Positions 878-64,000 of a stretch of DNA of 64,000 bases are shown piece after piece (within the stretch, counting starts at the first letter, position 1; each line of letters opens with the position of its first letter). Position numbers and translations under genes: made by a program. The notes beneath the pieces were generated by a model. That model was given only the letters and a program-made list of their open reading frames with translations, searched no databases and was not told the origin of the DNA. The stretch comes from Idiomarinaceae bacterium (lineage in GTDB: Bacteria > Pseudomonadota > Gammaproteobacteria > Enterobacterales > Alteromonadaceae): assembly GCA_002685255.1 (NCBI GenBank), contig NYWU01000016.1, positions 115,043-179,042 of the forward strand. The letters are read 5' to 3'.

Positions 878-2578
878 TTAATGAACCCCTCGGTCATTCA
901 GATGGGCTTGATAGGCTTTGTCACTGTGCTGAATGTGCTGCAATAGCCAACGCTTCACAAATTCGAGCAACTCACCTACCACTTGGTCGCCCCGCTCGAT
1001 ACGACTCCGAAAATCAACGACTTGCTGCACCAACTGCTGATGCTTGTGTTTATGTGCATCCAGGTCGGGGTAGTCGTGGCGCTCCATCAACAATTCTTCG
1101 TAACTAAAATGAGTCGCAGTGTAGTTAATCAACGAGCTCAACAGCCGTTCGACCGCCTGGCGGTCGCCACCTCGCTGCTGTATTCGGTACAACTCATTAG
1201 CAATGTAAATCAACCGCTGGTGCTGACGGTTAATCTCCTCAATACCAACATCAAACTGTGGTGACCATTCAATGAGCTTTTCTTGCTGCGCCAGACGCGA
1301 CTCGATTATCTGGGCGTCGACTGAATAGCGATCACCTAACGATTGAATCTCACCGCCAAGCGTCGTTAGCTGCGCTGCACTTTCAAGTGCATGTTGTGAA
1401 TAGCTATCAACTTCTTTCGCTGCATCGGTTGCCGTGGTAATCGCTTCTTTAATGGTCGTGGTAGTCATCGCCTGTTGCTCGGTGGCAGAGGCCACTTGAG
1501 TATTAAGGTCAGTAATTTGATGAGTAAAGGTTACGATGGTATCGAGCGCCGCCTCAGCCTCTTCGGCGGAGAGTTTCGCTCGCTCTGCTTGCTGCGCATT
1601 ATTGTTAAGACTACTCACCGCTTGTTGGGTGTTTTGCTCCAAACGTTCCACCACACTTTGGATCTCGCCCGTTGATGTTTGTACTCGATGAGCAAGCTTA
1701 CGCACTTCATCAGCGACTACCGCAAAGCCACGTCCTGTCTCGCCCGCTCGCGCTGCCTCTATGGCCGCGTTAAGCGCAAGTAAATTGGTTTGTTCAGCAA
1801 TGTCATTGATGGTCGTCAAGATAGTGCCAATGGCTTTGCTATCTTCAGACAGACTATTTATCACCGATTGCGAGTGCAAGATCTCCTCACTCAAAGTGAT
1901 GTTGTGTTTTGCTAATTGCTGTACGCGCTCCCGCCCACTACTCGCTGCATTAAGGCTTTCATGAGCGCTGGTAGCCGCTCTTTGAGTCGATTCAGACACT
2001 TCATTGATGGCAGCGGTCATTTGTTCAGCGGCAGAAGAAACTTGATACATCGTATCGGCTTGTTGCTTAGTTTTCTCTGCTAACGCTTTATTGGCATCAT
2101 AATTAGCGGTACCGAGTCGATTCAAACCATCGCTGGCTGTGCGAATTGCGTGAACCGAGTAACTTGTCTCAACAGAGATTGTGTTAAGTCGCTCAGTTAG
2201 CCACGCCAGTTCGTCACTGCCCTTAAGTTGTGCGGTATTATTAAGATCGCCATTGGCCAATGCGCTTGATATTCGGTTAGCCTCGCCCAGCGAGCGTTTA
2301 ATTCCGGTATACATGGCCGTGAAGATAATGAGTTGTACCAAAACCATGCCAGCGAGCATAACCGCATTCCATAAAATAACTTGTGTGGGATCACTCACAT
2401 CGATCGCATGACCATTAAGCGCCGCTTGCTGGCGTTGGTAAGAGTCCCACATCATTAATAAACTGAGCACGATAACAGGCAAAAACAACAAGCTGCCGGT
2501 GACAATAAATTTATTCCTGAAACGCAGGCCATTAAAGAAAAGTTGGATTGGTTTGGTGACTGAAACGAGTGCGTGCAC
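878..2578 (-). CDS. Methyl-accepting chemotaxis protein with C-terminal bacteriohemerythrin domain
   Basis: 2 TM + HAMP + MCP signature ([37 protein letters not shown]); C-terminal [31 protein letters not shown]; GTG start. Confidence 0.9.
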
Positions 2579-42232: not shown

Positions 42233-42262
42233 AGGGCGCAATTCAGGATTTTGATGACTGAA

Positions 42263-42332
42263 AACATATTGTCGCGCAAAATGCGCGACCTACGAATGGC
42301 GCACCCTATAGGAGTCGAACCTATGACCTTTG
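42263..42332 (-). repeat. att-like 70-bp direct repeat (tRNA-Arg 3' 36 nt plus 34 nt downstream), distal copy
   Basis: identical to 44726-44795. Confidence 0.9.
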
Positions 42333-42333
42333 G

Positions 42334-42666
42334 CCTGCAATTAAATCGTGGTTTACGCAAGACGCGGATCACCCACCTGATACAGAGCAAATTATAAAAG
42401 GAATGAACTACACGGATGAAGTCTATTCTAATGCTCCTGATAGAGCAGGTGTTTCTGACTCTTGCGACCCAACTAATGGATTAATTAAAGGTGATGGTGA
42501 CTCCGGAGGCTCCACCGGAGGGGGAGGTAAGCCTCCTGGCGGAGGTTCAGGAGGAGGCTCTGGCACTATAATGGTATATGGTTGCGAGCTATGGAAATTC
42601 CCTGATGGAAATGGAGGGCATTACTATATGAATCGAAACTGTCAATATTATTATATGCCTAGGTGA
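42334..42666 (+). pseudogene. Probable 3' remnant of a larger gene with a Gly-rich linker and short Cys-containing tail (track ORF 42403-42666)
   Basis: frame stays open upstream of ATG 42403 through the att junction (first stop at 42259-42261); AAGGA sits too close to the ATG to be a normal RBS. Confidence 0.45.
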
Positions 42667-42677
42667 TCTACGACTGG

Positions 42678-42705
42678 TTAGAGTAGCCGAAGTCGGCTAC
42701 TCTAA
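42678..42705 (+). terminator. Perfect 13-bp hairpin followed by T-rich tract
   Basis: TTAGAGTAGCCGA-ag-TCGGCTACTCTAA-TTTTC. Confidence 0.6.
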
Positions 42706-42747
42706 TTTTCTTTAATAGAGCTTAATGTTAATAAAATATTTTGGTGA

Positions 42748-62545: not shown

Positions 62546-63193
62546 TCAGCAGGATTTAACACAACGAAAGAAGGTTACTTGGTCGCTCACTCTGTCGACG
62601 TTGAAACCAAACCGTTGCGCAATATAACGATAGGTCTGGTCAGTAAAAAACGAAACATGGGTTAAGTCGTTTTTGTAATGCCAATTGGGAAATACGTCAG
62701 CCGATACATAGGGTTTTGTCATCGTCGCCAACGTACCGCCTGGCTTAACGAGCCGACGTAACTGTATAAACTCTCGTTGCGGATAATAAAAGTGCTCTAT
62801 GACTTCAGTACAGGTCACTACATCGTAGGATTCACTCAGTACCGTTTCATCGGGCGAGTAAATAGGATCATAATGGTTGGCGTCGATCCCCGATTCTTGC
62901 ATCATTAGATGCAACGTGGGGCCAGGTCCTGAACCAAAGTCGAGCGCTGTTTGGTAGTCCAACCTCTGACAAATCGTGTTTAGAGGCTGCCAAAGGCGAT
63001 TTAAGAAGTCTCGGTAGTGTGGATCATGGGGATCGTTTTCGTGTGTTTCGTAAAGACGCTTTTCCTCGTCACGGTCAACGTGCGTAGCGGGATCAGCAAA
63101 AACCAACTGACAATGACAACACTGATGGAAGGAACGTCTTCTATCACGCGCATAAAACTGACTTGGTGAATCACAAAGAGGACATAACAACAT
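62546..63193 (-). CDS. Class I SAM-dependent methyltransferase with N-terminal Zn ribbon
   Basis: CPLC...CCHC, LDFGSGPG, CTEVIEHF, W.YKND.THVSFF; ATG 63193 preferred because the track start 63232 lies inside a terminator stem. Confidence 0.82.
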   Translation of the reverse strand: MLLCPLCDSPSQFYARDRRRSFHQCCHCQLVFADPATHVDRDEEKRLYETHENDPHDPHYRDFLNRLWQPLNTICQRLDYQTALDFGSGPGPTLHLMMQESGIDANHYDPIYSPDETVLSESYDVVTCTEVIEHFYYPQREFIQLRRLVKPGGTLATMTKPYVSADVFPNWHYKNDLTHVSFFTDQTYRYIAQRFGFNVDRVSDQVTFFRCVKSC

Positions 63194-63212: not shown

Positions 63213-63237
63213 AAAAAAGGCGATGTTTCCATCGCCT
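63213..63237 (-). terminator. Terminator closing the candidate sRNA
   Basis: AGGCGATG-GAAA-CATCGCCT-TTTTT. Confidence 0.85.
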
Positions 63238-63521
63238 CTGTTTCTCATATTCGGCAGCGCACTGCAACTATGAGAATGGTTGTCACTGCTTCCGAGTTTT
63301 TATCTCGGTCTTCCGTAACCTAATTTTCTAGTTGTTGTTATTATAGAAAGGAGCAACCAATACTACTTTTACTCCCTGGATCTCTATTCTATTATTATTG
63401 GTTTTGTGAACCGAAATCCAGAATCGATTTATTGTTATTTTTATGTATCGATTTTATTCGCTGCTTTAGGCAGTCTTATTATTGTTTTGATGCCTCAGGA
63501 GAGGTCATCTCCCTCGGACGC
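63213..63521 (-). ncRNA. Candidate ~310-nt structured sRNA with A-rich (AAN)n loops (CrcZ-like Hfq sponge); 5' end approximate
   Basis: TTGAAC-17-TAGTCT promoter (63555-63527); series of hairpins with loops ACAUAAAAAUAACAAUAA, UAAUAACAACAAC, AUAAAAA plus AAAACAAUAAUAA, AAUAAUAAUA; own terminator; no credible ORF. Confidence 0.6.
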
Positions 63522-63639
63522 TTTAAAGACTACGTATTAATGCGGATGAGTTCAATGATTTTATCGCTCTAAAAATCCATTTTTTTATAACATTTTTGTT
63601 TATAAGACGTAAAAAACGCATAAATCTATAACATATGAT

Positions 63640-63668
63640 AAAAAAAGGGTGGCATTTGAGCCACCCTT
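63640..63668 (-). terminator. Terminator of the cytochrome c4 gene
   Basis: AAGGGTGGC-tcaaat-GCCACCCTTTTTTT. Confidence 0.88.
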
Positions 63669-63686
63669 CATGAATAAACTTTTTTC

Positions 63687-64000
63687 TTAATAAAGACCGT
63701 GCAGGTACTCAGCAAGTAATTTCATCTCTTCATCGGTCATTTTTGCAGCAACACCGCGCATCATACCGTTAGGGTCGTTTGCACGTTTACCACTACGAAA
63801 ATTCTCAAGCTGAGAAATTATGTACGCAGGGTGTTGTCCTGAAATGTCAGGGAACGCTGCGAGGCCCATTCCGTTACCGCGTGGTCCGTGACAACCTGCA
63901 CACGAGGGAATCTTAGTATCAGGGTTGCCGCGGCGATAAAAATCCGCACCTTTCGCGATTAAGTCCTCGGGCGTGTCGCCTTTCGCAGGATCTTGAGCTG
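63687..64000 (-). CDS. Cytochrome c4 (diheme), C-terminal domain; truncated by window edge
   Basis: IPSCAGCHGPRGNG, FPDISGQH..Y...QL..FR...R.ND...MM. Confidence 0.88.
   Translation of the reverse strand, partial: AQDPAKGDTPEDLIAKGADFYRRGNPDTKIPSCAGCHGPRGNGMGLAAFPDISGQHPAYIISQLENFRSGKRANDPNGMMRGVAAKMTDEEMKLLAEYLHGLY

Follow-up and report, generated by a model that had tools for sequence, protein, structure and literature searches.

What is encoded in the 493-bp gap that separates, on the minus strand, the cytochrome c4 gene (stop at 63687) from a methyltransferase gene next to yihI in the Idiomarinaceae bacterium of assembly GCA_002685255.1? The stretch analysed here, referred to as the window, comprises 64,000 nucleotides of contig NYWU01000016.1 (positions 115,043 to 179,042, forward strand), and coordinates without a prefix are window positions. 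A preliminary description of the gap had proposed a CrcZ-type RNA that titrates Hfq and governs catabolite repression. On balance, the gap more probably encodes a non-coding RNA of about 309 nt, a descendant in the Idiomarina clade of the Csr-type small RNA (sRNA) found upstream of yihI, which base-pairs with a second small RNA, here called sRNA-X, most likely as its decoy.

A structured RNA gene conserved throughout Idiomarina

The gap DNA has matches in all 24 Idiomarina genomes compared, the 16 other families sampled yield none, and the RNA locus is single copy in its own genome. An nhmmer profile of the genus RNA reaches two sister genera, g69 (E = 1e-18) and g53 (E = 1e-3), and finds nothing beyond them, other families included. 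No open reading frame (ORF) is conserved at the locus: those of 44, 46 and 32 amino acids in the window are interrupted or not conserved in relatives, and on the sense strand of the RNA no ATG-initiated ORF exceeds 9 amino acids. The predicted RNA has a minimum free energy of -92.4 kcal/mol, with z = -6.9 against shuffled sequences. A discrete, unannotated RNA of about 310 nt with its own signals and no credible ORF, as first proposed, is thus borne out as a predicted gene at 63521-63213.

In an alignment of 21 orthologues (A1), the elements follow one another as a variable 5' stem-loop, hairpins H2, H3 and H4, the GGUU-ACGGAA-GACC hairpin (H6), a 3' hairpin (H7) and the terminator (Table 1). 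The H3 stem covaries between AUCGAU, CUCGAC-GUCGAG and GCGAC-GUCGC around a nearly invariant loop. The sequence of the H4 stem differs by lineage, yet it pairs in every case when the 21 orthologues are folded individually, and the closing pair of H6 alternates between U-G and U-A around an invariant loop. H7 is nearly invariant, so its support is conservation only. At many pairs of the conserved stems some sequences have G-U instead; on the plus strand these would become C-A mismatches, and therefore only the minus strand fits. Among the stems listed in the preliminary description, AATCGAT/ATCGATT is real and covarying and UUCUCAUA/UAUGAGAA is real and near-invariant; UUUCUA/UAGAAA and the 5-bp CCGAG/CUCGG are confined to the window's closest relatives. 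Across the orthologous gaps, then, stems covary and the A-rich loop of H3 is conserved, as that description had anticipated.

The transcription signals assigned to the element also stand. A terminator scan recovers both of the hairpins said to bracket it (63669-63644 and 63239-63216), each with a U-run. The c4 terminator is kept in all relatives, with stem changes in the genus gap alignment, and insulates the RNA gene from upstream read-through; the terminator of the RNA itself is invariant within the genus. The promoter TTGAAC-17-TAGTCT is present where it had been placed and is sigma-70-like, not of sigma-54 type. It matches 7 of 12 consensus positions, below the threshold of the consensus scan, which therefore missed it; despite this it is conserved genus-wide. 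Over 24 orthologous gaps the -35 element remains TTGAA/TTGAT-like, and variation of the -10 element is limited to its three middle positions (TAGTCT, TATTGT, TAGTGT, TAGGCT). Judged by eye, no sigma-E, FNR, ArcA or CRP site in the promoter region fits the conserved pattern. An AT-rich inverted repeat further upstream is a candidate site for a regulator or an UP element.

These signals bear on whether the element might be a cis-acting leader or a read-through product of c4, the methyltransferase gene or yihI, as its orientation, the same as that of the flanking genes, would permit. Two strong terminators bracket it, however, and it is unchanged where the methyltransferase gene separates it from yihI. 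In relatives, moreover, a conserved promoter-like block that belongs to yihI (..GTTACAAT..) follows the RNA terminator, and a leader or read-through product is scarcely credible.

A second small RNA with covarying complementarity

In the same genome (G000), the minus strand of the spacer between ruvB and ybgC (contig C5, L144) carries two invariant motifs of the window RNA. There it is evidently the plus strand that is transcribed, with a promoter TTGATG-16-TATAAT, whose TATAAT is conserved in all species, and a terminator GCCCG..CGGGC-U8. The putative product, sRNA-X, is therefore complementary to the window RNA. Its conserved blocks are UUCCCUGGAUU and CUUCCUUCUUGUUGUU. sRNA-X occurs in all 25 Idiomarina genomes and in 54 of the 59 family genera sampled, and has no match in a permissive Rfam scan. 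Outside the clade that owns the window RNA, the conserved blocks are only UUCCCUGG and CUUCC..UUGUUG; the 5' block is confined to that clade, where it lies in the loop of a hairpin with a covarying stem (A-U x13, U-A x7).

Within the genome of the window, the complementarity includes perfect Watson-Crick blocks of 11, 9 and 8 nt; dinucleotide shuffles produce a block of >=11 nt together with one of >=9 nt with P = 0.011. An unbiased duplex search, in which three segments of sRNA-X were run against the whole window RNA in 29 genomes, recovers the same two sites in 29/29. The first is a predicted duplex between GGAAGCAGUGACAACCAUUCUC (63293-63272) and the 5' region of sRNA-X, with an energy of -25 to -31 kcal/mol in each of the genomes; in the second, UUCCCUGGAUU is the predicted partner of AAUCCAGGGAG (~63381-63372), with -17 to -25 kcal/mol. 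The intermolecular helices are about 22 bp (5') and about 12 bp (middle) long.

Both helices covary between the two loci. The pair formed by window base 63277 is A-U in most Idiomarina, G-U in genome G017, U-A in G021 and G-C in each of the three genomes of g69. Across 12 distinct combinations of the 5' helix, position 17 is A-U six times, G-U once, U-A once and G-C four times, position 15 is C-G eleven times and U-A once, and every combination is canonical at positions 10-16 (12/12); g53 has changes on both sides at three more pairs. The middle helix, seen in 14 distinct combinations, has positions -5, -4 and -3 doubly changed and still paired in g53, where it is a perfect duplex of 12 bp (12/12 pairs). 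A third contact may involve the A-rich tracts, since 8 nt of the tract at 63331-63344 are perfectly complementary to UUGUUGUU of sRNA-X and each AAYAAYAA tract can form 8 bp with UUGUUGUU if G-U is allowed. Complementarity to sRNA-X would explain the blocks of highest conservation better than titration of a protein. A genome-wide search for long mRNA targets complementary to the invariant 31-nt block gave just chance-level matches of 11-12 nt, bar one that led to sRNA-X.

Several points weigh against this reading. The third block, the 3' seed of sRNA-X, chooses different sites in different genomes, and the contact is therefore suggestive only. Of 300 shuffles, 3 attain the duplex energy of the whole molecules, and shuffled sequences often contain short G-U-tolerant blocks; such statistics discriminate poorly because A-rich and U-rich sequences pair easily, and they were therefore replaced by Watson-Crick block statistics and cross-genome covariation. 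There are 16 other matches of 11-12 nt genome-wide. sRNA-X was discovered during a look at other A-rich loci and 11-mer matches, partly by eye, so the P of about 0.01, which comes from a single genome, is partly post hoc. As the lineages are related, the compensatory events that are independent are few (approximately G017, G021, g69 and g53). Both pairing blocks partly overlap intramolecular stems (H4/H5 and H7), which must open. Finally, what the data show is conservation, structure and covarying complementarity; the transcripts, their ends, the pairing, the direction of regulation between the two RNAs and the parts played by Hfq and CsrA are inferred, not observed.

The shared blocks might also reflect common descent or gene conversion, if the functional gene of the window locus were instead on the plus strand, as a paralogue of sRNA-X. 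A model of sRNA-X (R2) does match that strand weakly (C8:178301-178412, E = 8e-4), but neither a promoter nor a proper terminator is found on it around the blocks, the order of the blocks differs between the loci and the flanks are unrelated. The G-U pairs of the stems exist on the minus strand only, and the canonical invariant terminator lies there as well, which leaves a plus-strand gene very improbable.

Another sRNA-like element, ended by a terminator, lies after polA in the position of Spot 42/ErsA, about 2 kb past the window (G000:C8:~181105-181230 = L189:~2105-2230, minus strand). It contains GAGAGGUAAG and a seed, CUCCCUGGAUU, which in this genome is complementary to the window block AUCCAGGGAG over 10 bp plus one G-U. 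The sRNA-X model matches this element weakly (E = 0.002), and g69 genomes have comparable matches roughly 3 kb away from the RNA. In a permissive Rfam scan, the polA-engB region matched no family credibly; the sole hit was a sub-threshold anti-hemB.

Table 1. Coordinates of the predicted RNA, its signals and elements, and related features elsewhere in the genome
Feature	Coordinates	Strand	Remarks
Predicted non-coding RNA, ~309 nt	63213..63521	-	Putative transcription start to end of U-tract
Cytochrome c4 intrinsic terminator	63644..63669	-	Hairpin and U-run; terminator scan
AT-rich inverted repeat upstream of promoter	63569..63590	-	Genus consensus TAAAAAA-GTTG-TTTTTTA; centre at about -58
Sigma-70-type promoter	63527..63555	-	-35 TTGAAC 63550-63555; 17-nt spacer; -10 TAGTCT 63527-63532
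A-rich tract 1, AAAACAAUAAUAA	63476..63488	-	Single-stranded; (AAN)4-5 conserved in genus
Hairpin H2 (CUGC/GCAG)	63461..63473	-	Covarying; 6 sequences changed on both sides of one pair
Hairpin H3, AAUCGAU/AUCGAUU	63422..63453	-	18-nt A-rich loop with near-invariant core AAAAAUAACAA
Hairpin H4	63376..63421	-	Loop in the window contains AAUAAUAAUA at 63390-63399
Invariant block AUCCAGGGAG	63372..63381	-	First conserved GGA; complementary to UUCCCUGGAUU block of sRNA-X
A-rich tract AUAAUAACAACAAC	63331..63344	-	(AAN)4-7 in genus; three-base period
Hairpin H6, GGUU-ACGGAA-GACC	63307..63320	-	Second conserved GGA, in six-base ANGGAN-type loop
Invariant block GGAAGCAGUGACAACCAUUCUC	63272..63293	-	Third conserved GGA; predicted to pair with 5' hairpin-loop region of sRNA-X
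GACAACCA	63277-63284		Within block 63272-63293
3' hairpin H7, UUCUCAUA...UAUGAGAA	63242..63276	-	Inner GCAG/CUGC stem; nearly invariant
Intrinsic terminator of the RNA	63213..63239	-	GGCGAUG-GAAA-CAUCGCC and U6; scan places hairpin at 63239-63216
sRNA-X, ~105-145 nt	G000:C5:5808-5947 (= L144:408-549 / L181:1501-1640)	+	Outside the window, between ruvB and ybgC
UvrY/GacA-position response regulator, P0001	G000:C28:188707-189357 (= L106:1063-1713)	+	Directly upstream of uvrC

Probable kinship with Csr-type RNAs at the csrC position

In most Idiomarina, yihI follows the RNA directly and in the same orientation, in a c4-yihI gap that lacks the methyltransferase gene. This is the position of csrC, which in E. 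coli lies immediately upstream of yihI and in the same orientation. The preliminary description rightly made the link to csrC, but its wording, near the syntenic position, is too weak, as the position is exact. Homologues of csrC are always next to yihI/yihA, and one has been predicted in Pseudoalteromonas (Kulkarni et al.; PMC1488887). The YihI encoded at the present locus is 99% identical to that of Idiomarina sp. MD25a and 87-93% identical to those of I. baltica and I. fontislapidosi. Between it and the RNA sits an S-adenosylmethionine-dependent methyltransferase (Methyltransf_23) with a Cys-rich N-terminus (window 62546-63193, minus strand), an insertion found in few species, namely the window's closest relatives and one other. 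Its conserved start is the ATG at 63193; the listed start at 63232 falls inside the terminator of the RNA.

Other genera carry RNAs at the same address. A survey of yihI loci across the order and the family for gap RNAs found, in the c4-yihI gap of about a dozen other family genera, terminator-ended RNAs that mostly hold 6-16 GGA motifs and several AAUAAUAA tracts (examples are L067/L099, L076, L085, L091, L092, L096, L097, L101 and L122). Two other families have such RNAs in the same gap, with up to 20 GGA motifs (examples from other families are L048, L066, L071 and L072). Several of these GGA-rich RNAs are preceded by a TGTAAGACATTG.CCATTA box, like the UvrY/GacA site. Scans of 30 yihI loci from other families at Rfam gathering scores gave no CsrB or CsrC; since no GGA-rich gap RNA reaches those scores, the GGA-rich RNAs of the csrC position appear to form an unmodelled family.

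The Idiomarina RNA is probably related to these RNAs. A covariance model of its 3' domain (R1) matches the yihI-upstream RNAs of G095 (E = 8e-5) and of G184, which is GGA-rich (E = 1.3e-4), beyond the two sister genera to which the nhmmer profile is limited. Common to both kinds of RNA are a module consisting of GUYA-GGA-WGACC, an A-rich stretch and then GGAAG, and a terminator of the GGCGA..UCGCC type. E. coli CsrC ends with the same terminator type, GGCGA..UCGCC-U6-CUUU, and an H6-like GUCA-GGA-WGAC hairpin is present in E. coli CsrC and in the Csr-type RNAs of other genera.

Motif content sets the Idiomarina RNAs apart. Their 3-8 GGA per 310-354 nt (a density of 0.8-2.3 per 100 nt) are close to the number expected from base composition, whereas E. 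coli CsrC has 14 in 246 nt (5.7 per 100 nt); they also hold 4-13 AANAANAA motifs, against none in E. coli CsrC. Only three of the GGA motifs never vary, and one of these sits in a hairpin loop. At the locus, Rfam CsrB/CsrC give no match at E <= 10. The genus alignment has no UvrY-type TGTAAG..CTTACA box upstream of the RNA, and the inverted repeat at 63569..63590 does not match one. The genome contains one perfect TGTAAGN6CTTACA (C22:12098-12115), in a 54-nt spacer between two same-strand ORFs with no adjoining sRNA-like region.

The regulator expected to act on such a box is itself degenerate. No LuxR-type regulator of this genome reaches the UvrY/SirA/GacA cut-off; the best, with 129 bits against 280, is the one located just before uvrC, where uvrY usually lies. 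In the UvrY of the clade, the DNA-binding helix-turn-helix half is well conserved and the receiver is degenerate, with DD changed to NN and D54 lost. Canonical UvrY is present in 55 of 61 family genomes, the six exceptions being both Idiomarina sampled, one genome each of g53 and g69, a split gene and a fragmented assembly; among 57 genera sampled, degenerate UvrY is limited to Idiomarina, g53 and g69. These three are probably one clade, and the loss therefore counts as a single event.

Could the RNA nevertheless be a functional orthologue of CsrC that sequesters CsrA dimers at the ACGGAA loop, UCGGAAG and CCAGGGAG? Its exact csrC position (PMC1488887) and its probable relation to GGA-rich RNAs at the same site would suit this, as would the GGA in a textbook six-base hairpin loop. 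The genome encodes two CsrA paralogues of 63 and 59 amino acids (G000:C4:245449-245604, minus strand, and G000:C34:28530-28685, plus strand) and has no match to RF00018; RF00084 was covered by the all-family scan of the locus only. A ranking of the genome by GGA/ANGGA density yielded no classical CsrB, the top intergenic candidates being antisense to tRNA genes, and no other intergenic region is GGA-dense. On the other side stand the GGA density near compositional expectation with only three invariant motifs, the unmatched Rfam CsrB and CsrC models, the missing UvrY/GacA-like box that GGA-rich relatives have, and a clade UvrY that falls far short of the family cut-off and has neither the acidic pocket nor the phospho-acceptor Asp. 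Of the three invariant GGA motifs, furthermore, two lie inside the covarying helices with sRNA-X, and the hairpin-loop GGAAG matches CUUCC in the sRNA-X 3' seed, which would explain the conservation of GGA without CsrA. Action as a CsrC orthologue is thus conceivable but doubtful.

As a separate observation, this 2.77-Mb genome carries two CsrA genes and no recognisable classical CsrB-type RNA. Its most GGA-dense unmasked stretch, at ~42233-42747 of the window (plus strand; C8:157275-157789), looks like a short glycine-rich coding region with GGA/GGC/GGT runs and not like an RNA sponge.

A-rich tracts, Hfq and the comparison with CrcZ

The preliminary description drew on the A-rich tracts, and in this respect it holds: they are conserved and unpaired, and one lies in a covarying hairpin loop. 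The locus is the top 330-nt segment of the 2.77-Mb genome for AANAANAA, with 9 matches against a mean of 0.21 (standard deviation 0.55), and the window RNA contains 8-9 overlapping AANAANAA motifs. Four A-rich tracts are conserved in the genus, and each member has 3-6 tracts of at least three AAN repeats. In the best-aligned tract (63331-63344), A7, A9, A10, A13, A15 and A16 are invariant and positions 8, 11, 14 and 17 vary. Hfq is encoded once in the genome, and its distal-face residues Y25, I30 and K31 are intact (SIYLVNGIKLQG).

CrcZ depends on a CbrB/sigma-54 promoter, lies in a cbrB-pcnB context and acts with Crc. None of this applies here. The CrcZ model (RF01675) scores 13.8 bits at the locus against a gathering cut-off of 95, and 15.7 bits at best genome-wide. 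No Crc is found in the genome: the sole Crc-sized, XthA-like protein with an EEP domain (269 amino acids) proves, at 486 bits, to be a true exonuclease III, and neither of the two larger proteins with such a domain is Crc-like. Membership of the CrcZ family is accordingly rejected on the Rfam score, the sigma-70-like promoter, the c4-yihI context and the lack of Crc, despite an A-rich anatomy that resembles CrcZ. The proposed Crc-independence agrees with these searches, and a permissive Rfam scan of the locus (CrcZ, CsrB and CsrC included) gives no credible family; the assignment as a CrcZ-type RNA falls, and nothing ties the RNA to catabolite repression.

A CrcZ-like sponge of protein need not belong to the CrcZ family, and exposed (AAN)n tracts might titrate the distal face of Hfq without Crc and so relieve Hfq-dependent translational repression. 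The genome-wide peak of AANAANAA at the locus, the 3-6 repeat tracts per genus member with AA invariant and the third base free, the tract displayed in the H3 loop and an Hfq with Y25, I30 and K31 all accord with such a role. The RNA nevertheless lacks similarity to CrcZ (13.8 bits versus 95), its promoter is not of the CbrB/sigma-54 type, and Crc is absent. The same A-rich tracts occur in the GGA-rich Csr-type relatives and are therefore not special to the Idiomarina RNA, and ARN tracts are also typical of ordinary targets and decoys of Hfq-dependent sRNAs. The blocks of highest conservation are not A-rich and are accounted for by pairing with sRNA-X. An Hfq sponge is therefore an unlikely primary function, and Hfq titration is compatible with the decoy reading as a possible secondary role.

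A proposed decoy for sRNA-X

If the RNA is a decoy for sRNA-X, itself a putative Hfq-type sRNA, its history and action might be pictured as follows. In the clade, the RNA would have been reduced to three invariant GGA motifs and become dominated by (AAN)n tracts. Block 63272-63293 would pair with the loop and flanks of the 5' hairpin of sRNA-X, block 63372-63381 with UUCCCUGGAUU, and the AAYAAYAA tracts and GGAAG motifs would match the 3' seed, CUUCC...UUGUUGUU. Acting as a sponge, the window RNA would sequester sRNA-X or trigger its decay. The distal face of Hfq would hold the (AAN)n tracts and the proximal face the U-tail of sRNA-X, with the tracts doubling as extra decoy sites. Pairing would also mask the three GGA sites of the RNA.

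The role of decoy is assigned to the window RNA, and not to its partner, because it is the longer of the two, because its several site types cover essentially all unpaired parts of sRNA-X, and because it has the ARN tracts typical of RNAs that Hfq keeps on its distal face while its proximal face presents a U-tailed sRNA. A further reason is that sRNA-X is far older and more widespread, and must therefore have other targets. The overlap of GGA motifs with the helices allows competition between CsrA and sRNA-X for these sites. Titration of Hfq and residual titration of CsrA may be secondary or alternative functions; the covariation is explained by neither.

A more tentative extension is that a Csr-type protein sponge was re-purposed as a multi-site sponge of sRNA-X, and possibly of the sRNA at the Spot 42 position too, which has the same seed, alongside the decay of BarA-UvrY. 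CsrA, Hfq and sRNA-X might then compete for the GGA and AAN sites and couple the Csr and Hfq-sRNA networks.

If the decoy reading is true, a regulatory RNA would have switched from titrating a protein (CsrA) to titrating an RNA while keeping its chromosomal address. Two unannotated sRNA families would lie outside Rfam, namely the csrC-position RNAs of Alteromonadaceae, with GGA and AAN motifs, and sRNA-X. The RNA-RNA pair would be open to compensatory mutation, the covarying positions being already mapped, and would bear on post-transcriptional control in small-genome marine heterotrophs that have lost canonical UvrY.

Comparison with known systems

CsrC is known from E. coli and Salmonella and is predicted in some Vibrionaceae and in Pseudoalteromonas (PMC1488887). 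Like it, the Idiomarina RNA would be the product of a stand-alone sRNA gene upstream of yihI in the same orientation, as in E. coli (PMC1488887), with a GUCA-GGA-AGAC-type hairpin, a GGCGA..UCGCC-U6-CUUU terminator and, at the same site in sister genera, GGA-rich RNAs that are probably related to it. It differs in having 3-8 GGA motifs instead of 14, in its AANAANAA motifs, in the lack of an Rfam match and of a UvrY box, in the degenerate UvrY of its hosts, and in conserved blocks that are predicted to pair with another sRNA. With CrcZ/CrcY of Pseudomonas it has in common several exposed AANAANAA tracts, a length in the range of ~300-400 nt and a promoter and terminator of its own; there is no similarity in sequence or structure, the context and promoter type are other, Crc is absent, and invariant blocks that are not A-rich are present in addition.

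The proposed action has a closer parallel in QrrX of Vibrio cholerae, a stand-alone sponge RNA shown experimentally to act on the sRNAs Qrr1-4 (PMC9732341). In both cases a separately transcribed non-coding RNA would pair with and inactivate one or more Hfq-dependent sRNAs. The two are unrelated in sequence and locus, and the Idiomarina RNA, whose pairing is deduced from covariation only, is much longer, has multiple site types and apparently derives from a family of protein sponges. In Salmonella and E. coli, SroC is a sponge of GcvB that is processed from an mRNA. It and other decoys resemble the Idiomarina RNA in offering target-like C/A-rich sites to a G/U-rich sRNA seed; unlike SroC, the Idiomarina RNA comes with a promoter of its own and with two dedicated long helices.

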